Sequence record: NC_135732.1
From: a phage
Strand: one strand, 5' to 3'
Length of the DNA stretch: 64,000 bases
Shown in pieces: positions 50,933 to 63,605 of this stretch; within the stretch, counting starts at the first letter, position 1; every line of letters begins with the position of its first letter. The position numbers were made by a program, and so were the translations under genes. The notes under the pieces are model-generated. The model was not told the origin of the DNA and did not search any database. It was given only the letters and a program-made list of their open reading frames with translations.

Positions 50933-51391
50933 TCAACACTTTTTGTACTCCACCACGATAATATCCATATCAAAAGTGGCAAGGTTAATAACGTCCTCTA
51001 CGTGCTCCCACTTCAAACCGCCTATGCCGCACCCGATCTTAGGGATGTAGAATGGTAAAGTCGATCCACCGAATACCTCGTTGACTAGCTCAAAGCCTTT
51101 CAGGATTGAGAAATATTCAGCATTAGGTCCTGGGTAGAACTGAGTATACAGATTGATTCCGTAGACAATACCTCTCGGAGATAAGTGCTCCCATCGGGAG
51201 AATGCACCCAGTTTACTTAGGCAACCGTGTCTAGTCTCTTTGTCGGCTGACAATGCTTGAGGGAACTCACGGGCAATATCTTTCGCTATGCCTGCACCCA
51301 TTGTGTGAAAGCAGTTACAACCGTGGATCATGTGTCCTGCCCCTTTCTTGAAAAGGGAGATTAGATCTCCTTCTACAGTATCAATAATCAC
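50933..51391 (-). CDS. macro-domain protein (ADP-ribose binding/processing)
   Basis: Segment GDLISLF...HMIHGCNCFHTMGAGIAKDI aligns by eye with the macro-domain GDIT...VNAAN..GGGV block; C-terminal GCGIGG. Start uncertain (GTG 51391, or ATG 51472/51490 with long overlap). Confidence 0.65.
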   Translation of the reverse strand: MIIDTVEGDLISLFKKGAGHMIHGCNCFHTMGAGIAKDIAREFPQALSADKETRHGCLSKLGAFSRWEHLSPRGIVYGINLYTQFYPGPNAEYFSILKGFELVNEVFGGSTLPFYIPKIGCGIGGLKWEHVEDVINLATFDMDIIVVEYKKC

Positions 51392-51806
51392 GGTATGCCA
51401 GCTCCTCTTCCGCAATTTCAAAAAACTCAGTCCAGCACTGTGGCATATTGGAGTTACCGAAGTGGCTTTCATAGTAAAGGTTCTCACCACTCGGGAGATA
51501 GAAATCTGTTACCTCATAGAATCCACAATCGTCGCACTCACCTTCTTCAAACTTGGCCTCGACCTTAATACCGAGGAAGGTGAAAAGTTTATGGATATCT
51601 TCAGTTTCGAACTCCCAGTGAATGTTGTTTTCCGCATCGGTGTAGAACTGGATCAGCAGACCATTGTCCAGTTTACCAAAATACTCTGTGAAGTAACTTC
51701 CTTCCCAGAAATCTTTATGACAAATAATATCCATGCGTTTGCCCATAATAATGGTGTGAGCGTTTTGGGCATCATCACGAATCAGTTTTGGCATTTCATA
51801 GATCAT
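51381..51806 (-). CDS. hypothetical protein
   Basis: 141-aa ORF. Confidence 0.45.
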   Translation of the reverse strand: MIYEMPKLIRDDAQNAHTIIMGKRMDIICHKDFWEGSYFTEYFGKLDNGLLIQFYTDAENNIHWEFETEDIHKLFTFLGIKVEAKFEEGECDDCGFYEVTDFYLPSGENLYYESHFGNSNMPQCWTEFFEIAEEELAYRDY

Positions 51807-52599: not shown

Positions 52600-52632
52600 T
52601 ATACAAAAATGCCCCACCCTTTCGGGCAGGGC
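52600..52632 (-). terminator. terminator; same 22-bp sequence as at 63599-63620
   Basis: GCCCCACCCTTTCGGGCAGGGC forms a GAAA-looped hairpin on the minus strand, followed by a T-run. Confidence 0.55.
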
Positions 52633-52647
52633 TATGTTAACTAGATG

Positions 52648-53874
52648 TTAGAATGGGATGTCATCATCAAAGGCGTACTGTGCTGGATTCTGATCCATCG
52701 GGTCATCTTCCTCGTCATTTACAGGAGGAGCGTCTACAGTATTTTGCTGTGAAGCAGCTTCCTGTTTGGCAGCTTGAGGTTCTTGATGGTCAGTGGACCC
52801 AGCACCGTTCTTGATCCAATCGTACAACGGCTCAGCCAGATTAGTCAAGACATCTTTTGCTTCTGCAGTAATTGCCGCTGCAAAATCATCAACTTTCGTT
52901 TTCTTGTCAATACGGCGACAAGCGTTCAACACCGCATTACCGACACTGGCACCTACTTCATCTTCAGTTCGGTTGGTGGCTTGAGCATACTCTTTCTTAA
53001 GCTCAATAGTGACTACGTGCAGTGTTTTAGCCACACCTAGTGGGTCGTCTACCTTAAACCCGCGATCCAGGATGATTTGCAACGCATTGATGCTATGTCC
53101 CGTCTCCACACCAATAGGGTCGTAAGAGGATTTACGCTTGCCACCAGAGCCTTGAGTGCCGTTCTCTGCCTTAGGTGGATAGGCTTTGAAACCACTGATA
53201 ATGTTTCCGGTGTCTTTGTCAACAATGGCTGCAACACGACCACCTACCACCAGGTCTTTAAGCTGCTCATCAGTAACAACCATGGCACCTTCGCCAATCT
53301 TGTGGTCATTAACAGTAACCACGTTGCCAACAATCTGAGTCACATCGCCATAGATGCGTAAAACGTCCTGATTGGCATTCTGCTGAGGTTTCTGCTTCTG
53401 GCCTTGTGATTGTGCACCTTGTTGCTGTTTTTGCTGCTGAGTCGCTGCTGGAGCCTCTCCTGCACCCAGCTTGACCATCTTAGCCAGTGAGCCTTTGTAA
53501 TAGGTCTTACCGTTATGCTCGTTTGCCTTCAAAGGGATATTTACGATCCATCCCGGCGTTACGGTTTCCCACTTGTCATCAATCTTAACAGAGACAGAGT
53601 CTTGATGACCAGGTTTAAGCAGCTTATCACCCATACTGATCCAAACTTCTTCACCACCTTGAAGCAGGTTATCAGAGGAATCCAGTTCAGAAATCAGTAA
53701 AGAGATGGTGTGGCTGGATTCAATTTTCTTACCTTGCCACACAGTGGTTTTAATACCTGTTGTAGGATCAGCACCTTTGATAGGTTTGATGCTGACACGT
53801 TTAATCATGCCGTGAGCCAGTAAAACAGTTTCACGCGGATTCATCGGGTTAGCGAATTGTTGAATAACGCTCAT
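52648..53874 (-). CDS. putative single-stranded DNA-binding protein with SSB-type acidic C-terminal tail
   Basis: Ends ...NPAQYAFDDDIPF (E. coli SSB ends DDDIPF); Gln-rich linker. No OB-fold alignment done. Confidence 0.5.
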   Translation of the reverse strand: MSVIQQFANPMNPRETVLLAHGMIKRVSIKPIKGADPTTGIKTTVWQGKKIESSHTISLLISELDSSDNLLQGGEEVWISMGDKLLKPGHQDSVSVKIDDKWETVTPGWIVNIPLKANEHNGKTYYKGSLAKMVKLGAGEAPAATQQQKQQQGAQSQGQKQKPQQNANQDVLRIYGDVTQIVGNVVTVNDHKIGEGAMVVTDEQLKDLVVGGRVAAIVDKDTGNIISGFKAYPPKAENGTQGSGGKRKSSYDPIGVETGHSINALQIILDRGFKVDDPLGVAKTLHVVTIELKKEYAQATNRTEDEVGASVGNAVLNACRRIDKKTKVDDFAAAITAEAKDVLTNLAEPLYDWIKNGAGSTDHQEPQAAKQEAASQQNTVDAPPVNDEEDDPMDQNPAQYAFDDDIPF

Positions 53875-54239
53875 TATTTGTCTCCTTGTTCTTCGTTAGT
53901 GTTTGCCGTGTGTGCAAACCCTGCTTGAATTAATTTGTCCTGAACTTGAGCCAACAGGCCCATTGCAAAACTTGTGGTCCCAGAGAGGGCCATCAACATA
54001 TCTCGTTGTTGAGCTACCCAACCTAAGGCATAGTCCAAACGACGATATTTTTCTTCTTCACGCAGAGCCTGAAATAATTGTTCAGCCTCCGGTTGTTGTG
54101 TGAGCTCCTGAAGTCTTCCCATGAAAGAAGAAAGCACTAGCAAAAGAGACACTTGATCTTTACTTAACCCTAAGAAAAATTCTTGAGGTTGTTCTTGCTC
54201 GTTCATCGCAACCGACGCTTGATCGTTCATTTGTTCCAT
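53874..54239 (-). CDS. hypothetical protein
   Basis: 121-aa ORF. Confidence 0.45.
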   Translation of the reverse strand: MEQMNDQASVAMNEQEQPQEFFLGLSKDQVSLLLVLSSFMGRLQELTQQPEAEQLFQALREEEKYRRLDYALGWVAQQRDMLMALSGTTSFAMGLLAQVQDKLIQAGFAHTANTNEEQGDK

Positions 54240-54322
54240 TATGGAATCTCCGATTTTATTTGAACAACATAGAAGGAGACACTATTTTAGCATCCCCTTC
54301 TGTAAATTACAATAGATATTTG

Positions 54323-54568
54323 TTAGCCAATCACTTCAAAAGTTCCCCAATTCCCGTCCAGCAGGCAGGTGATCGGATCCCCATCGTCGTCAAAGATTTC
54401 AAAGTTTTCAGCATCCAGGATGTGGCCCTCGAACACAATACTTTCGTCGCCACCACCAGAAATAACAGCGTATTCCTTACCTTGAGTCAAGTTTTGACAC
54501 CCTTTGCCACCAAAACCTACTTCAACACAACGTACTTTCTGTCCTGCGCGAGCAACTACTCCAGTCAT
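54323..54568 (-). CDS. hypothetical protein
   Basis: 81-aa ORF. Confidence 0.4.
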   Translation of the reverse strand: MTGVVARAGQKVRCVEVGFGGKGCQNLTQGKEYAVISGGGDESIVFEGHILDAENFEIFDDDGDPITCLLDGNWGTFEVIG

Positions 54569-54585
54569 CTTAAGGTCTCCTGATA

Positions 54586-54906
54586 TTAATCGTCAAGTTC
54601 AAAATAGATTTTAACAGCTTCATCAAAGATTGGAATCCCGATGTTGTTGATAAGCTGCCAAACTACCATATCTTTACCTGGGTCTGGGAGAATGTCAACC
54701 TTTCTCCATGCGCTGTATATCCAGTTCGGACCACCTTCTGCACTAACTGGCAGATTTTCACCAGCCTCCTGCAGATACTTATACAGCAAAAGATATTCTG
54801 GATACTCTAGAACACTGTCCTCTGTAGTATATAGCAGTTCACGGTATACTTTTAAGAACCCTGCGGGGGTGATGTTTTCAGTCTTCATTTGCTGCTTCTC
54901 CTGCAT
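54586..54906 (-). CDS. hypothetical protein
   Basis: 106-aa ORF. Confidence 0.45.
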   Translation of the reverse strand: MQEKQQMKTENITPAGFLKVYRELLYTTEDSVLEYPEYLLLYKYLQEAGENLPVSAEGGPNWIYSAWRKVDILPDPGKDMVVWQLINNIGIPIFDEAVKIYFELDD

Positions 54907-55267
54907 TCATCAGATCTGCCATAGCGTCACCCACGAAGAGAACAACCACATCGTTGATCGCGTCAGCATCATCTTTGTTGACGTTGCTGAATTTAGGACA
55001 CACAGCAATGATCATATAGACACCGTTACCAACCTGGACTGTCCGTGTGGTGCACATCATGGCGGTATTTGTGCCTTCTTTGAAGGCGAAGCCTTGAAGA
55101 CGCTCCTCTAAAGTGTTACCGGTAGATTTCAGAAGCGCCAGCTCGTCCAAGGCATAGATGATATCTCCGGAAGTTAGTGTTGCCTTGCCATCAGACACCA
55201 TAATCACTCCATCAGCACCGTCAAGCTTAGAGGCTTCAAAGATATCAATATCCCAAATATTTTTCAT
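54878..55267 (-). CDS. hypothetical protein
   Basis: 129-aa ORF. Confidence 0.45.
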   Translation of the reverse strand: MKNIWDIDIFEASKLDGADGVIMVSDGKATLTSGDIIYALDELALLKSTGNTLEERLQGFAFKEGTNTAMMCTTRTVQVGNGVYMIIAVCPKFSNVNKDDADAINDVVVLFVGDAMADLMNAGEAANED

Positions 55268-55599
55268 TACGCTTCCTCGTCGTCTAAGTAATCATCAAGA
55301 GAGGTGAAGATTTCACCGAAGTATTCTAAGATTGCTAGCTCACGTGTGGTGCAGCAAACATAATCGCCTTGGTCGTCCTTAATAGTGGCCTCTTTACCCA
55401 GAACATGCACTTCAAATTCATCGTTCAGCAGGACGGCCCCTGTGTAAACTTTGTCAGCTGTGCAGTCCCGAAAAGCAGAGTCCTTTTCCAGATAGTCTGG
55501 CTTAACCTTGGCTTTAATTCGTTGATATTGTTTGGTCATTGCTGTGGTCCCCTTTCGTTTTGATAGGGCCATTATATTAGGCCCTATCACTGTTGTCAA
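55267..55599 (-). CDS. hypothetical protein, paralog of 55603..55857
   Basis: Shared blocks AFRDCTADKVY/AFKDCTIGVVY and KDDQGDYVCCTTRE/KDDEGDSVWCTVNE. Confidence 0.45.
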   Translation of the reverse strand: MTTVIGPNIMALSKRKGTTAMTKQYQRIKAKVKPDYLEKDSAFRDCTADKVYTGAVLLNDEFEVHVLGKEATIKDDQGDYVCCTTRELAILEYFGEIFTSLDDYLDDEEA

Positions 55600-55602
55600 G
55601 TA

Positions 55603-55857
55603 TTAATGTTCAGGTTTTACAAAAACTACTTCATTAACAGTGCACCAGACAGAGTCTCCTTCGTCATCTTTAAAGGTAAGGCACTGTGCTGAGTTTTCCA
55701 GCTCATCAATCTCTTCTTGTGATAAAGGAGCCCCTTCTTCCAGAAGGGCTTTTACCAAAGGGTTCTCACAAAACTCTGCTTCATAAACTACACCGATTGT
55801 GCAATCTTTAAAAGCTCGGTCATTTTCAACGCATTCTGGCTTCAGAGTAATTTTCAT
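55603..55857 (-). CDS. hypothetical protein, paralog of 55267..55599
   Basis: See paired gene. Confidence 0.45.
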   Translation of the reverse strand: MKITLKPECVENDRAFKDCTIGVVYEAEFCENPLVKALLEEGAPLSQEEIDELENSAQCLTFKDDEGDSVWCTVNEVVFVKPEH

Positions 55858-55933
55858 CTTGGCAGTCTCCTTAATTATTTAAAAATCAACTCTTTGTTTG
55901 TGTGAAACATCTTATACCTAATCTTACTTCTTG

Positions 55934-56332
55934 TCAACGACTATTTTCAATCATCCACCAAGGATCAAGGTAGGTTTGTTGACTTTTTGCCCACTGGCAA
56001 ACATCTTCGTACATCTGAACTTCGTTTTCAGTCAGTTCGCGAATAGGCTCATCTATACCCTCATTTTTGTGGTAATCCCAGCTGGCATCGATTTCCCATA
56101 GCCACGGTTTGTTATTTCCACGTTTACGTACACAGAAGTCACCGGGACGGCCTGCCAATGCATTTAAGAACTCGTTCTCCGCTCGCTCCTGAAGAATACT
56201 AAGGAGCAAAACGTTGGAGCATGACCGTAAAATATGCTTCAGCTCACAATCATCAATCTCAACTTCAATACGTTGTTTGACTGTGTGGGTACCTTTTACT
56301 AACATCCTACCTCCTCTAAACGAACTCTGCAA
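55934..56332 (-). CDS. hypothetical protein
   Basis: 132-aa ORF. Confidence 0.45.
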   Translation of the reverse strand: MQSSFRGGRMLVKGTHTVKQRIEVEIDDCELKHILRSCSNVLLLSILQERAENEFLNALAGRPGDFCVRKRGNNKPWLWEIDASWDYHKNEGIDEPIRELTENEVQMYEDVCQWAKSQQTYLDPWWMIENSR

Positions 56333-56510
56333 GGGTTGTGTTGTTCACTGCACCGCAGTAAATGGAGTATCCCAGCCCATTAGAGTGCAGAAACCACGGC
56401 GTGCCGAAATTATCTTTCACGTAGACATCGCCGTTGCTTGTAAAGGGCCAATATTCTTCACCAAGGGTGAAATACCTACTCATACCCTCAGCCAGATACT
56501 TTACTTTCAT
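56316..56510 (-). CDS. hypothetical protein, three-member paralog family
   Basis: Motif DNFGTPWFLHSNGLGYSIYCG. Confidence 0.4.
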   Translation of the reverse strand: MKVKYLAEGMSRYFTLGEEYWPFTSNGDVYVKDNFGTPWFLHSNGLGYSIYCGAVNNTTLAEFV

Positions 56511-56734
56511 AGGTCCTCTTCAACAGCTACAAACTTGGCAAGCAGGGTGGTTCCGTAGATATGATACTCACCGTTTGCCAGATGGGAGATAAACCAGGCA
56601 ATCCCTTCCTCGTCTTTAATCATCTTGTTTGCACGATTTTTATCGTAATAAACCTCGTAGGTCTTTCCTTCTTTAAAGAAGGACAGGTCTGTCATCTTTT
56701 CTTCTACAAAAGTAGCTTTAACCAAAGTTGTCAT
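56507..56734 (-). CDS. hypothetical protein, three-member paralog family
   Basis: Motif DEEGIAWFISHLANGEYHIYG. Confidence 0.4.
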   Translation of the reverse strand: MTTLVKATFVEEKMTDLSFFKEGKTYEVYYDKNRANKMIKDEEGIAWFISHLANGEYHIYGTTLLAKFVAVEEDL

Positions 56735-57048
56735 TGATCGGTCTCCTTCTTGTTAAGTCTGAATACTGCAATAATAGCATTCCCAAGGTGCAGTGTCAAA
56801 TCATTTCCAAGATACCACAGCATCCCACGGTCATCTTTAATGAAAGGGTGACAATCTGGTGCCTTCCAGACATTGTACACTTTCCCAACCTGAAAGAAAT
56901 CAGGCCCTGTCGGGATTTTGGTGCCTGGCCACACTTGAGATACCTGAACACACTCCACCTGCATAATAACAGGGATAGTCATGGATGTAAATGTTTTTGT
57001 TGGCTCTACTACCATAAAAGTCTCCTCTTTGCTCAACAACACTTCCAT
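56731..57048 (-). CDS. hypothetical protein, three-member paralog family (start uncertain)
   Basis: Motif DDRGMLWYLGNDLTLHLGN; track start 57105 overlaps the polymerase exon 2. Confidence 0.35.
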   Translation of the reverse strand: MEVLLSKEETFMVVEPTKTFTSMTIPVIMQVECVQVSQVWPGTKIPTGPDFFQVGKVYNVWKAPDCHPFIKDDRGMLWYLGNDLTLHLGNAIIAVFRLNKKETDQ

Positions 57049-57064
57049 GTGTTGATAGTTTACA

Positions 57065-57418
57065 TTAGTGACAATCACCCCAATTACGACCACACAAGTA
57101 TTCACCTGTGATCTGGAACGGGACTCCCATCATTTTAGAAGCTTGCCAGAAGCAATGCACCACCATTTCACCCACCGGGCTCCAGATAAGTTCAAGCTTC
57201 CCGTCATCGTTCAGGATAGGATCGTACACCGTGTTTCCGTCTCTGTCAACCACTTCGTTTCCGTTCTCATCCTTGCGTGCCTTTTTGTACTTATGACCGT
57301 CAAACACATGAAGTTTGGCTTCCTGCTCTGCCTTAAATGCTTCCAATTCTTCAATTGTGTCGAAGGTGTACACAGTCTTATACTTAGGCGTGTCAGGGAC
57401 CTGAAGTTGGTACTCATC
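57065..57418 (-). CDS. DNA polymerase (family A), exon 2 (C-terminal part)
   Basis: Begins DEYQLQV, completing motif C (...IIYYH|DE) when joined to exon 1; ends LCGRNWGDCH like Pol I (GENWDQAH) and T7 (GPNWAICH). Confidence 0.6.
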   Translation of the reverse strand, partial: DEYQLQVPDTPKYKTVYTFDTIEELEAFKAEQEAKLHVFDGHKYKKARKDENGNEVVDRDGNTVYDPILNDDGKLELIWSPVGEMVVHCFWQASKMMGVPFQITGEYLCGRNWGDCH

Positions 57419-58260
57419 CAATAGTTCAGGTAGGTCGTTAAGCTACCCCGCACCATTACGTGCACAGCCATACGGTTTCCTGTATGGATCGGACTATCTC
57501 ACTACCTTGTTACCAAGGCACCTCTCATTTCGACCGCACTTGCTGGCCTACTCTACTCGCTTCTTCACACCAAACTATGTTGGAGCTATGCTTTCGATAG
57601 TCTCTGAACGTTACTACCAGGTGTAGTTTTTAGAGATATGTTTCCACTGTCTTCTTTGCTTTATGGCTCTGACCGTCTCATAAGGATACCCAAGATCCCT
57701 AATCTCGCATTGTCGTAGACCACTCTGCAACAGTTCGCAAATCTCCGTTACCTCATCCTCGGTCAGCACAGCGTTGGCATTATACTCACCGACTGGCCTT
57801 ACTCTGAGTTCATTATCGTAGGCGTGTTTGATATTTCCACCAGGGGTAGTCCATTCCAGGTTCCAGTGTGCATTGTTGTACTTATTTCCATCCTTATGGT
57901 TCACCCATGTGAGCTTTTCAGGATCAGGGTTCGGTACAAAGCATTCAGCAACCAAGTGGTGGACACCTTTTGTGCACTGCTTCCCCTCGATGAGCATGGT
58001 TACGCAAAGGTAACCTCTACCATTATCAAAACAAAACATTGTTGTATGATCACGTTTCGATAAAGGTATTGTTCCATCATCAAACACGGTATACCCGTGA
58101 TAATCAGCTGATCTAGCCATTTTAACTACACCCCTTTAGTCTTCGCTGCGGATTAGCATATTAAGCTTTTACCATGTTCAGGTGTAAAAGTCAACTTAGC
58201 CTTCCCGTCAATTAAAGAGGTTTTCGACGTGCATCACTGCACGAAGCCACAATGTTATTT
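57419..58260 (-). mobile_element. putative group I intron interrupting the DNA polymerase at motif C, carrying an HNH ORF
   Basis: Exon 1 ends ...TAC CAT (last nt U); the 842-nt intervening sequence ends with G; splicing restores YYHDEY. Confidence 0.55.
57614..58120 (-). CDS. HNH homing endonuclease
   Basis: HNH core LTWVNHKDGNKYNNAHWNLEWTT; same subfamily as the nrdD intron ORF. Confidence 0.8.
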   Translation of the reverse strand: MARSADYHGYTVFDDGTIPLSKRDHTTMFCFDNGRGYLCVTMLIEGKQCTKGVHHLVAECFVPNPDPEKLTWVNHKDGNKYNNAHWNLEWTTPGGNIKHAYDNELRVRPVGEYNANAVLTEDEVTEICELLQSGLRQCEIRDLGYPYETVRAIKQRRQWKHISKNYTW

Positions 58261-60684
58261 ATGGTAATAAATAATACGACGAACACCTTCATCGTACCAC
58301 CCGCGCTTCACCATTTGGTGGTGCATGAGTATCCCAACTAAGTCACACAACGATGCACCACCATTCTGTTGGTATGCATTAAGTAAAGAGTGTTTAGATC
58401 GGGTCCAGATAGCATGACCATCAAAAGAGTAGATAAACTTCTTACCCGTTGCTTCCCAGAATTTCTCCAGATCTTCTTTACGCCCCTTAAGACCGGGGTT
58501 GGCATCCCAAAGTGCATCGATTACCCTTTGTCCCAACTCTGGGGAGATATCCAGCATGTCTGCAACTTTGTCTTTTTGTGCCCCATACATAACCCCATAC
58601 GTGATAGGTTTACCGTCGTTACGAGACACCTCTCTGCCTGCTACTTTTGTATATGCCTCAGCATTGTTTTGGTGTGCGTCCCCGTTACTTACAACATCAT
58701 AATACAAGCCGTTGTCGAACTCAAAGGCACCCCAAGCCCCGATAAGCTGCTCTAAGTTGGACCCGTCAATACCGATCTCAAAGTATCCCGGAGGAACACC
58801 CCACAGACTACGCATCTCTTTACCCATAACAACTTTAGGAGATGGTTTAGGCATGTTTGCACAAATACTGTGTTTCTGTCTGGAAGTGTTTGTTAATCCA
58901 GAGCTTTTAGCAGGAAGCTTATGGTCAATCTTCAAACGTGGGTGATTAAGAAGACCAGTGTCAACCTTATCCTCCTTGATTGGATCAAGTACCGATCTGC
59001 GGTTTCGCAATGATAACCACAAGACGATATCTTTAGCCATCTCTCCGTTCAATTTTTCAAGATTCGGGCACAGGTGTCCAAACGTATCTTTCAGTTGCGG
59101 AGAAGTAATAAGTGCCCTAGCTTTTCTACGTATTTTCCCGAATACTTCCTTTTTAATCCTTTCGGAGTTAGGAAAGCTTCGGAACTTGTGCACGGTTGTC
59201 TGGAACTTAGCATCAGTTTTGTTCCAGAAGTTGATAATTAGATCACAATACTCTGACTCTAAAAGCTCGTCCATATATGCATATACTCGTGCATCAACAT
59301 CTGCATCAGGTAGAGCTTTCTTCTTGCTGTCTTTAGTTACATCCTTAGTTCTCCACATTGTCGGAAGCCAACCAGCACTGATCAGATACCGCTTAATGTC
59401 GTCCTGATTGCTGATTTTCATAGGTATCTTGCAGTCCGGCATTCGCTTCTGCTGTAGATCACTTATTGCCTGATCCATTAGCTCTTTAGGTAAAGGTTGT
59501 GGTGTGGAGGTGCCCTTAATATAGCCTCTCAAGAAATCAGCCATCTTATCTGGGTCTTTGCAGCCCATCTCTTCACACCATTTTATCCCCATCTTACTGA
59601 CATCTCCTGTGGAGGTAAATGCTCGCTTAGGCGGGGCTTTGAACTCTAAAGCACTCATGTCTACAGGATAGCCAAGCTTATCTTTTAACCATTTCCAACC
59701 ATTATTGGAAATTGTCCCATCTTGGTTAAATGGCTTTTCAGGGAACTTGGGCCGCTGAGACATTGACAGCTCTTTTAAAGGTAGTTGTGGTTCAACACGA
59801 TCAGCGATTTCTTTCATCCACGCATCGCAACGGTCACGTAAAGCAATAGCTCCATCTATGTCAAAATACACACCCTGACGGGCCTGCAGCTCCATCAGGA
59901 AGTGCTGCAGCATGCCTCGGCGCAATGCGTTCTTCCAGGTGATTTTCTTGAACCCTTTCGGCTTCTCTTTGGCTGGATCGTACATAAAGTTCTGCATGTC
60001 AGATTTGCCGTAGAATACACCTTTTGATTCCGCTACCAGCTCTTTCCAGAGCAGCTCCTGGATGATAACGTCCTCGAATACACGATCCACATACTTCCAC
60101 AACGGAAGATCGCGCCAGTCATCAATTTGAACTTTCTGGTTACCAAGGGCGTAGCCCCATGCCATAAGGCCGTGAGGACCAACAGGCTGCATTTTCTTAG
60201 TAACCGGGTTGAATACAGAGTCCGGACAACCTTTTGGTAAAGGGCGATCAGGCCACAAGATTCTGCTCATCGCCAACGTATCAAACAGGTTAACCTGGTG
60301 GTCGTTGATAGTCCCCATGCATTTAGGATCACGGAACATATCAAAATGAATACCGGATAATCTTTCCATCAGCATAAAGTCATAACTGTAGCAGTTATGG
60401 CAGTTCAAAGCTGTTGGTGACCAGTCGGAATTGCCTGTAAGCCAACCTTCCAACTCCGAAAAATCTGCTATGCGAACTTCAAAATCTTTATGAAGAGTTT
60501 TCTTTGCCAGAATAAAGTTCTTAGCCTTCTCTATATCCTCTTCGGAGTAGTGTGTGCGGTCATTTAGAGGAAGGAACAGCATAAAACGGTTCTTATTCAG
60601 CTCTTTAAACAGGCCGCAGTGATAATAAAGATCTGGATCTTCCAGCAAACCGGATGACTCAAAGTCGAACGACCACATGCTCAT
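58261..60684 (-). CDS. DNA polymerase (family A, T7-like), exon 1
   Basis: 3'-5' exo motif FDFESSG; motif A IGIDGSNLE; motif B RNDGKPITYGVMYG; track ORF reads through into the intron (H-K-stop). Confidence 0.8.
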
Positions 60685-60742
60685 ATACAGTTCTCCTTAA
60701 AGGGGAGGCGGTTGTACTACCCCTCCCACTCTTTGTTAAACA

Positions 60743-62821
60743 TTAAAAAGGTGTTTCATCATCCTCAAAACCAGGGACCGGATCAGAGGATGGATCATCG
60801 TATTGGAGGTCTTCCTGCGTGTCAATAGGCTTGACAGTGGGTGTTACAACCTTATCAGCCACAACCTTGCCCATAGGTGTTTCTACAACTGCATGCTCCT
60901 GATCCTCAAACATAGCCTGAGGTCTCCAAACAACCTCCCCACCTTCTCCGTCTGTAAACATCTGCATTTCTTTGTCCCAGTACCAATTACTGGCATCATG
61001 GAACTTACCTGTATGCGGATCCATAACTAAAGTGTCAGCAATACCTAAAGTTTTTGCTGGACGGTTTTTAAGACCTACCAGACGGACACGTCCACGAGAA
61101 CGATCCACCATTTCTTCGGCCTCGACACCTATGACTACCCAACTCAACTGTTCAAGCCCAGCCGATCCTCGCAAATTCTCTTTTCGCACAGGATACCAGA
61201 AAGGTAATGGGTTACCATCCTTGTCCTTAGGGGGCACAATCTCTGTACGTTTGAGGTGAGCGATCACCAAGATAAACACGTTAAACTGCTTACAAAACGC
61301 AGCCAGTTGGGTCATAGCCATGTCCAGTTCTTTTCGCTCATCCTTAACATTAAGCCCTGAAATTACCATGGACAGGTGATCCAGCACAATATAACGACAA
61401 TGGTACAGGCAAACCATTTGCTTAAGCTTGGTAATCAACTCGTCCACTGGAATAGACCCGAAATGTTTGAACACTTTGATTTTTCCAGCTTTTGCCCATG
61501 ATTGGTGAATCTCTGCGTGTTCTTGATCAGTTAAAAACTGGCTAGGATCTTCAACAAACTCTTTAACATCAAACCCTAACTGGTTTGCATACAAGGAGTT
61601 AATTGCTTCCTCTGGGTCCTCCTCAAGATGGATCATACATAGACGATCATCCTCTTCATAGTCATCAGCCTTCGGGCATGTTGGGTCCATTAGGTATCTT
61701 GCAATACAATGTTCCAGTTTTTTAGCTACGGTTGTTTTACCGCCACCTGATGGGCCTGTAAGCATTACAAGTGTCCCCTTGTGCAAGCCTTTTAACATTT
61801 TTTGCAGTTTTGGGAACTCTGCACTGATATCTACCCCGTTGGAAGTCTTTTTCCGCAAAGACTCGATAGAGAAGTCTTCTAAGTCCGACACAGCATCAGG
61901 CACATATTTAACAGGATGCCGGAACATGTTGACAATATCTTCCAGCTTTTTAGCCTTCAGCATGTCACGGATATCTTTTACCCCGTCAGGGTCATTTACT
62001 TCACCAGGGTATTCTACGTGGTAAACGTTATCAGCCATCAAAAATGCTGCGATATTGTGCGTGGCCTCAACACCTTTAATGACGTGTTTTTGCTTCTCTA
62101 CCTCGTTGGCTGCATCGTTATCCATTGCCAGCACAACTGTTCCATAGCTACGGATAAACTTCTCATTGTTTGCAAAAGTATCTACTGCGTTTGCACATCC
62201 ACAGTTAATTCCAACAAAAGGTAGGCAGGGTTTTCCTGCCAGATCACCACCGTTGATAACTGCATCGATCCCGTCCTGGACCTCTTTAGCCCACTGTTTC
62301 ACCTTTGCCGGGGCTTTAGCATTGGTGAGAATCCCTTTTACTTGTATCTGATATGCAGCCTGCCATGCTGCAATAACATCGCCTTCCCCCTCACAAACGT
62401 TAATCTGCTTACGGTTGTTAGAAGATGCACACAGCTTTTGCCCAAACATTTGGGAGTTAGCCTTTACGATCCCAACCGTCGTAAAGTGCCCACGTTGCTC
62501 TTTGGGGATCGTCCAGTCACGCTTTTTGAAACCGGACAGATTCCCGTAGCGGTCGTAATATGGGAAATATGTTGCAGTAACTGTCACACCGTCTTCTTGG
62601 GACAATGCTGATCGCACACCAAAATATTGTGCAGCCATCAGACCGATATTTTGTTGTGGGACAGGGACAATTTTAGTATTTTCTAAAACAGTCTCTACAG
62701 TTTCAACTTCTTTTTCATCACGATAGTCTCGTTTCACACTTCCCCCACTTTTATACTTAGTTGCTTTCGGGTTTGGCTCACCGAAACGGTTGTATGCAGA
62801 TGCCATAAATTTACTTCCCAT
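60743..62821 (-). CDS. primase-helicase (T7 gp4-like: TOPRIM plus DnaB-type helicase)
   Basis: TOPRIM CEGEGD and LAMDNDAAN; Walker A LTGPSGGGKTT; acidic C-terminal tail ...FEDDETPF. Confidence 0.8.
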   Translation of the reverse strand: MGSKFMASAYNRFGEPNPKATKYKSGGSVKRDYRDEKEVETVETVLENTKIVPVPQQNIGLMAAQYFGVRSALSQEDGVTVTATYFPYYDRYGNLSGFKKRDWTIPKEQRGHFTTVGIVKANSQMFGQKLCASSNNRKQINVCEGEGDVIAAWQAAYQIQVKGILTNAKAPAKVKQWAKEVQDGIDAVINGGDLAGKPCLPFVGINCGCANAVDTFANNEKFIRSYGTVVLAMDNDAANEVEKQKHVIKGVEATHNIAAFLMADNVYHVEYPGEVNDPDGVKDIRDMLKAKKLEDIVNMFRHPVKYVPDAVSDLEDFSIESLRKKTSNGVDISAEFPKLQKMLKGLHKGTLVMLTGPSGGGKTTVAKKLEHCIARYLMDPTCPKADDYEEDDRLCMIHLEEDPEEAINSLYANQLGFDVKEFVEDPSQFLTDQEHAEIHQSWAKAGKIKVFKHFGSIPVDELITKLKQMVCLYHCRYIVLDHLSMVISGLNVKDERKELDMAMTQLAAFCKQFNVFILVIAHLKRTEIVPPKDKDGNPLPFWYPVRKENLRGSAGLEQLSWVVIGVEAEEMVDRSRGRVRLVGLKNRPAKTLGIADTLVMDPHTGKFHDASNWYWDKEMQMFTDGEGGEVVWRPQAMFEDQEHAVVETPMGKVVADKVVTPTVKPIDTQEDLQYDDPSSDPVPGFEDDETPF

Positions 62822-63605
62822 TAATTCTGCTCCTTACTACAGGCTCGTTTGCTAAGAATACGGCTTTTGCCCAGCCACGTGGTGTGAGGCTTCGGATCAT
62901 CTTCGTTCTTGCACTCTTCCCACCCAGCTTGGCGTGTTGCATGGAATACCCGCTAACCGCGTCAACTATTTGCGGGACAGGTTTTGTGGCCGGGATTATA
63001 AATCCATTACCTATCCAGCCGCAAGTTATTTTTGGATAGGCATCACGTGGAGCTATAAATTCAGGAAACCAGGGGTTTACATCATCCTCCGGTAAATACC
63101 CGCCATAGTCAGAAGGATGAAAACGGTAATCAGGTTTGCGCCACAGTGTGGACATAACACCAACAGGATTCTCTACATGCCACGGGCAATCGTAAATCTC
63201 TCCCAGCTCTTCCGCAACCCGAGCATCCTTTACAGCATTAATTTGGATCAAAGGATCCTTAGCCAGCTTTTTCTTAAAATGTGCAGCACCTGATACCGCT
63301 AAATGCGTGCACGGAGGAAATGCAAGAATAAAGTCTGGAGCTGGATACATGCAAAAAGTTTCCTGAGGGAACCATGGGTCAATCCAATAATCCACATAGT
63401 GAATGTTAGGATGATCGGTTATCACCTCTGCATAACTGCCGTGGTCAGCACCTTCTGCATTAAAGCACAGGCACAGGTACCCAGCTTTTGCCCAGTCAAT
63501 AACTGCACCACCAGACCCGTCAAATAGACTCCACACAACACCTTTGTGGTAGTGTTCTTTGTAGATGAATTTCAATTTGCTGTCTCCTAATGCAAAAAGC
63601 CCCAC
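62811..63605 (-). CDS. DNA cytosine-5 methyltransferase-like protein
   Basis: Motif I LFDGSGG, PC-type motif IV FPPCTHL, ENV-type motif HVENPVG; short (264 aa) for a C5-MTase. Confidence 0.5.
   Translation of the reverse strand: MGLFALGDSKLKFIYKEHYHKGVVWSLFDGSGGAVIDWAKAGYLCLCFNAEGADHGSYAEVITDHPNIHYVDYWIDPWFPQETFCMYPAPDFILAFPPCTHLAVSGAAHFKKKLAKDPLIQINAVKDARVAEELGEIYDCPWHVENPVGVMSTLWRKPDYRFHPSDYGGYLPEDDVNPWFPEFIAPRDAYPKITCGWIGNGFIIPATKPVPQIVDAVSGYSMQHAKLGGKSARTKMIRSLTPRGWAKAVFLANEPVVRSRINGK

Follow-up and report, generated by a model that had tools for sequence, protein, structure and literature searches.

An SSB-like protein with the tail tip of E. coli SSB alongside a T7-type primase-helicase and polymerase in rV5-like phages

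The stretch of phage DNA analysed here (the window: 64,000 nucleotides of sequence record NC_135732.1) carries on its minus strand, at 52648-53874, an open reading frame (ORF) of 408 amino acids, whose product is probably the phage's own single-stranded DNA (ssDNA)-binding protein (SSB), serving a replisome of the T7 type. A sequence-only reading of the window had proposed that a T7-like replisome is accompanied here by an SSB-like protein that ends in the interaction tip of the host SSB and may recruit the host proteins that dock onto that tip. The same interpretation was reached independently in a preprint on a 99% identical protein, with a genetic link to SbcB, a partner of SSB tails, so that the SSB-like reading is already in the literature (bioRxiv 10.64898/2026.04.29.721553, 30 April 2026). 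What we add to it is the size and conservation of the protein family, the optional nature of a second barrel, a signature in a four-helix domain, the T7-type partners with their own tails, and alleles in which the tail is extended. The fold, the domain layout, the conservation of the tip, the relationship to the T7 proteins and the absence of any second SSB that could be detected were observed here in silico, and the role of the protein as a trigger of the DRT10 defence comes from experiments made elsewhere.

The C-terminus of the 408-amino acid protein reads ...NPAQYAFDDDIPF, closing AFDDDIPF. This confirms the DDDIPF ending given in the sequence-only reading. Over its final seven residues, FDDDIPF (residues 402-408; 52651-52671, minus strand; aligned to PDB 1eqq and 7f2n), the protein agrees exactly with the C-terminus of E. 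coli SSB in PDB entries 1eqq and 4mz9. No match to the protein was found in Pfam or NCBIfam scans, and its sole match in PHROGs is phrog_4477 (E 4.5e-173 over residues 1-408), an unnamed family without assigned function. The AlphaFold2 model shows five parts, all encoded on the minus strand. The first (residues 1-140; 53455-53874) is predicted to be an OB fold of the nucleic-acid-binding type, which bears out the fold that was expected, and is the presumed ssDNA-binding domain; modelled by itself it reaches a predicted local distance difference test (pLDDT) of 89 and a predicted template modelling score (pTM) of 0.82, and PriB, RPA, Stn1 and MCM are also among the likenesses listed for it. It is followed by a linker (residues 141-169; 53368-53454) that is predicted to be disordered (pLDDT <50 over 141-168) and contains 13 Gln in 29 residues, and both this Gln-rich linker and the length of 408 residues had been pointed out as unusual from the sequence. 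The third part is a second small beta-barrel (residues 170-235; 53170-53367) with three strands, a short helix and two strands, an OB-type strand order that was read from the model. Next comes a domain of four helices (residues 253-356; 52807-53118; helices 253-270, 278-299, 304-321 and 328-355), modelled at a pLDDT of about 90, and the protein ends in a predicted disordered acidic tail (residues 357-408; 52651-52806) with a pLDDT <50 over 359-408 and a net charge of -12. We propose that the four-helix domain serves for oligomerisation; a PDB structure search with it gave no specific match. For the protein, a Foldseek search against BFVD gave significant E-values for uncharacterised proteins alone. 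Since an OB domain, a disordered linker and an acidic tail ending in FDDDIPF are the arrangement of a bacterial SSB, both the fold and the layout of the modelled protein can be called SSB-like.

In an exhaustive profile search the family, which includes Bas52_0087, the protein studied in the preprint, came to 258 cluster representatives. The window protein belongs to it by its full-length match to phrog_4477 and by the combination of an OB domain, the signature of the four helices and an acidic C-terminus closing in x-P-F. The tip was counted in 203 collected family sequences and residue conservation was taken from an alignment of 155. In 147 of the 203 the C-terminal end is [IVL]PF and 15 more have the same tip followed by about 15 residues, while P407 and F408 are each conserved at 95%. 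The tip is kept among the approximately 200 sequences even at <30% identity to the window protein, and several relatives share with E. coli SSB the last 11 residues, PPMDFDDDIPF, so the host-type tip proved to be exact here and to be a property of the family. Most members have 270-300 amino acids and keep the OB and four-helix domains and the tail but not the second barrel, which is absent from the homologues of 275-308 amino acids and has a mean occupancy of 35% in the 155 sequences, compared with 93% for the helical domain. The four-helix domain is the best-conserved part of the family. The most conserved positions are G22, G108, P407 and F408 together with the signature residues of the four-helix domain, D252 (kept in 86% of the family), G255, G259, H260, N263, G308 and G312.

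The description as a T7-like replisome holds, judged by homology, for the helicase and the polymerase. The primase-helicase gene (692 amino acids; 60743-62821, minus strand) matches phrog_239 (E 7e-160) and contains DnaB_C and AAA_25 domains; the nearest solved relative of its product by sequence is T7 gp4 (E 1.6e-16), with Twinkle as a weak second. TOPRIM-like motifs, CEGEGD and DNDAAN, can be read in the protein, which we assign as a hexameric helicase of the gp4 kind with a TOPRIM primase fused to it, and no Cys4 zinc-binding cluster as in T7 gp4 was read in the N-terminal ~130 residues. The protein ends ...VPGFEDDETPF, its last seven residues (60746-60766, minus strand) being the EDDETPF tip that had been noticed from the sequence. 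Among 120 homologues, 115 end in Phe, mostly as D-x-P-F, and the mean net charge over the last 20 residues is -5.5 (n=120). Based on the tip counts in the SSB-like family, the conservation of P407 and F408 and the Phe end kept in the helicases, the Phe-ended tails of the two proteins are not a matter of chance. Many of the primase-helicase homologues, including that of phage TH18, are 975-1025 amino acids long, and as their alignment falls into two pieces they seem to contain an extra stretch of ~300 residues, which may be an intein; the window copy has no such interruption. The polymerase (ORF of 809 amino acids in the ORF table; 58255-60684, minus strand) matches phrog_17 (E 1e-90) and has T7 gp5 entries as its sole PDB matches (E 7.7e-15), and with a PF00476 score below the cut-off it can still be assigned to the gp5-like family A polymerases. 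The SSB-like gene lies on the same strand as the gp4-like and gp5-like genes and downstream of both. The phi92-type phages have the same arrangement, with the SSB-like homologue a few genes downstream of the polymerase, and some of their records already name this homologue an SSB; the 408-amino acid protein is labelled 'hypothetical' in every phage record whose annotation was inspected. No SSB is annotated in HeinrichReichert, a complete and carefully annotated relative from the BASEL collection, and tblastn searches of the window and of the full genome of a relative with E. coli SSB, T7 gp2.5 and T4 gp32 found just the tail of the 408-amino acid gene.

The experimental evidence on this protein comes from its counterpart in phage Bas52 (RudolfGeigy, MZ501102). 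Bas52_0087 (QXV84166.1) and the window protein are identical at 405 of 408 positions and have the same length and the same neighbour genes, and the three substitutions between them (K369T, S375P and A401S) all lie in the tail. Escape mutants of Bas52 were isolated against the DRT10/UG17 reverse-transcriptase defence, and both escapers had a single substitution in Bas52_0087, D252V or Y351C, which the authors placed at a putative oligomerisation interface (bioRxiv 10.64898/2026.04.29.721553). Bas52_0087 was described there as an SSB-like trigger of DRT10 on the basis of an AF2/Phold prediction, with two predicted OB folds, a disordered C-terminus and an FDDDIPF tip that resembles that of E. coli SSB (bioRxiv 10.64898/2026.04.29.721553). 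D252 and Y351 are both present in the window protein, the former just before the first helix and the latter in the last helix of the four-helix domain. That solely missense escapers were recovered would fit an essential gene. It was also shown that extra SbcB (exonuclease I) weakens the restriction by DRT10, and competition with SbcB was proposed (bioRxiv 10.64898/2026.04.29.721553). Through this SbcB genetics, exonuclease I is the best-supported host partner candidate for the tail.

Several results weigh against an SSB role. Bas52_0087 expressed alone caused no harm and did not trigger DRT10 (bioRxiv 10.64898/2026.04.29.721553). In a PDB profile search with a profile of 22 homologues, E. coli-type SSB was the only match and was reached through the last ~28 residues, and hhalign of the OB-domain profile against the OB domains of three canonical SSBs gave a probability of 0.4%. 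The net charge of the first OB domain is just +2, and few basic or aromatic positions in the domain are conserved, namely W102 (90% aromatic) and K123 (66%). A further difficulty is that residues following the tip, as in the extended alleles, would block the docking of the terminal carboxylate in SSB-tail pockets. With the terminal Phe covered by such an extension in many natural alleles, a strict need for a free Phe carboxylate cannot be assumed. By sequence and profile comparison, the 408-amino acid protein is not a detectable member of the bacterial SSB or gp2.5 family.

The mechanism we propose is that the N-terminal OB fold binds ssDNA, aided in this lineage by the second small OB-like barrel, and that the four-helix domain drives oligomerisation or cooperative binding. 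The disordered acidic tail with its host-identical tip would then dock onto proteins that have SSB-tail pockets. Host enzymes, for example exonuclease I, are likely partners, as are probably the phage polymerase or helicase, in the manner of the T7 tails, and DRT10 would depend on the activity of the SSB-like protein to fire during infection.

In T7 the acidic, Phe-ended tails of gp2.5 and gp4 both interact with gp5. One possible option, to which we give a probability a little short of even, is that the tail acts mainly within the phage replisome, where DDDIPF and EDDETPF would compete for basic patches on the polymerase, and that the likeness to the host reflects ancestry or borrowing. Such a role would fit the T7 type of the helicase and polymerase and the separate acidic x-P-F end that the primase-helicases have retained, and the tails of phage SSBs are known to bind phage partners, for example that of HK620 SSB with Sak4 (PMC5928155). 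Yet the match to the host SSB over 7 residues, and over 11 in several relatives, is more than would be required of a tail that is acidic and ends in Phe, the tips of the helicases (D-T/S-P-F and D-E-P-F) do not have the Ile/Leu of the SSB tip, and the dosage effect of SbcB speaks for a partner from the host. Action within the replisome and recruitment of host proteins can both be true.

Another hypothesis is that the protein is chiefly a decoy or competitor, whose tip on ssDNA displaces or sequesters exonuclease I and similar host enzymes and so protects the ends or intermediates of the phage DNA, with replication relying on the host SSB. The exact copying of the host tip and the SbcB results, with the competition that the preprint proposes, speak for this idea. 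We consider it unlikely, in view of the fact that no other phage SSB was found in the HeinrichReichert annotation or by tblastn, that the gene sits in the replication module of two phage subfamilies, that two OB folds and a conserved oligomerisation domain would be superfluous for a decoy, and that alleles with a masked tip are common. RecO is a protein that binds SSB tails, and that the 408-amino acid protein is an adaptor with an OB and a helical part, such as a recombination mediator or a helicase loader of RecO-like layout with the tip as a mere handle, is very improbable, as the RecO matches span the OB part alone (72-78 residues), RecO does not itself carry an SSB tail, and no zinc or other mediator motif was seen. 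Pure decoy and mediator or adaptor roles are both less likely than that of a phage SSB.

The extended alleles raise a question of their own. In many alleles, including the representative of a 533-member cluster, about 15 residues follow the tip (...DFCDDIPF-APVGLQYGKSRIHAL), with the consensus A-P-[IV]-[GT]-L-[QP]-[YF]-x4-[IL]-[HY]-x-[ILF]. The same extension was found after the tips of canonical phage SSBs (Vibrio BT-1011 and mEp235) and of a phi92-type homologue, and on gp4-like primase-helicases such as that of Klebsiella phage P8734, and at least 80% of a query made of tip plus extension was covered in 162 phage records. In the loci compared here the extension stretches lie at L003:2501-2572, L009:1501-1572, L002:4463-4510, L011:1537-1584, L012:1537-1584 and L013:1534-1581. 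The window allele has no extension and ends at the stop codon at 52648-52650, and a literature search with the extension sequence found no paper that mentions it. An EndoVII/HNH-like homing endonuclease gene separates the SSB-like stop codon from the terminator in I29 and HeinrichReichert, both of them rV5-like phages, and MaxBurger has an endonuclease gene at the same position; the insertions are at L003:2544-3167, L005:26962-27540 and L009:1544-2167. In the window this site is empty (52633-52647), and a predicted intrinsic terminator, a GC-rich hairpin with a T-run read from the sequence shortly after the SSB-like stop codon, lies at 52605-52632 on the minus strand. The tail codons next to the endonuclease are recoded, to EFDDSIPF in HeinrichReichert and to DFCDDIPF plus the extension in I29, as one would predict for tail-coding DNA that serves as the homing site. 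In rV5-like phages the extension may travel with this endonuclease, and as a general by-product of endonuclease insertion it was rejected, with four loci showing the extension and no endonuclease downstream. It can be speculated, with little confidence on our part, that the extension is a portable module which switches tails by masking the Phe, between a partner-binding state and a hidden or re-targeted one, for example for evading exonuclease I or defences that depend on the tip.

The 14 kb surrounding the locus has 98% identity to Escherichia phage ime and 96-97% identity to many other Vequintavirus (rV5-like) phages with genomes of ~137 kb, and the window is, from these identities, a Vequintavirus genome, with the replication module of an E. 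coli phage. About 20 records numbered MG0656xx and named 'Campylobacter phage', with C. jejuni as host, contain a gene 98-99% identical to that of E. coli rV5-like phages; their host labels look doubtful. Directly upstream of the SSB-like gene lies an ORF of 121 amino acids (53874-54239, minus strand; phrog_7310, a family without function), which overlaps the SSB-like start codon by one base, its own last and the codon's first, in an ATGA junction. This ORF was considered as a conserved partner and rejected, as the phi92-type locus has no counterpart of it upstream of the homologue. The third gene downstream of the SSB-like one encodes a macro-domain protein (50933-51490, minus strand; PF01661, labelled 'phosphatase' as phrog_335). 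At the other end of the module a DNA cytosine methyltransferase-like gene (62811-63605, minus strand; phrog_757) shares 11 bases with the beginning of the primase-helicase gene, and in HeinrichReichert another homing endonuclease gene is found between these two. The polymerase gene is split by a predicted group I intron in its YHDE stretch (57419-58260, minus strand), for which Rfam RF00028 gave a full-length model match at 57469-58270 with an E-value of 2.7e-6, under the gathering score, and which contains an ORF for an HNH homing endonuclease (57614-58120, minus strand; ORF table and library matches). Exon 1 (58261-60684, minus strand; phrog_17, T7 gp5) ends ...RRIIYYH and exon 2 (57065-57418, minus strand), recognised from its ORF and the comparison with Vibrio phage ICP1, starts DEYQLQVP...; the ICP1 polymerase, which has no intron and reads ...IIYYHDEYQLQVP, served to place the junction, and the HeinrichReichert annotation also gives the polymerase as a joined gene.

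The rV5-like and phi92-like phages of E. coli are a large group annotated without an SSB, and assigning this family would fill that gap. The family would also be a second SSB body, unrelated in sequence, that bears the bacterial SSB tip, and such a tip would offer a lytic phage a direct way of exploiting or obstructing the network of host SSB partners. There is moreover already evidence that the protein triggers a reverse-transcriptase defence. With the key reading in the preprint, the remaining value lies in biochemistry and in the tail variants.

When compared with known systems, the 408-amino acid protein resembles bacterial SSB (PF00436) in having an OB fold, a disordered linker of the Gln/Gly/Pro-rich kind and an acidic D-D-D-I-P-F tip with the last 7 residues identical, and differs from it in an OB domain without sequence or profile similarity and in the extra barrel and four-helix domain. 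The likeness to T7 gp2.5, gp4 and gp5 consists in the pair of gp4-like and gp5-like genes and in the acidic, Phe-ended tails on the SSB-like protein and the helicase; with gp2.5 the protein shares the acidic tail with its terminal Phe and neither sequence nor fold similarity. The third comparison is with ORF68 of phage ICP1 (L007:19882-21048), a protein of 388 amino acids that ends DLDDSIPF and is encoded downstream of close homologues of the primase-helicase (48% identity) and the polymerase. As a member of the rV5 SSB-like family ORF68 was rejected, the hidden Markov model of the family giving no match to it, and it is apparently a non-orthologous replacement in which a tip of this kind was retained.

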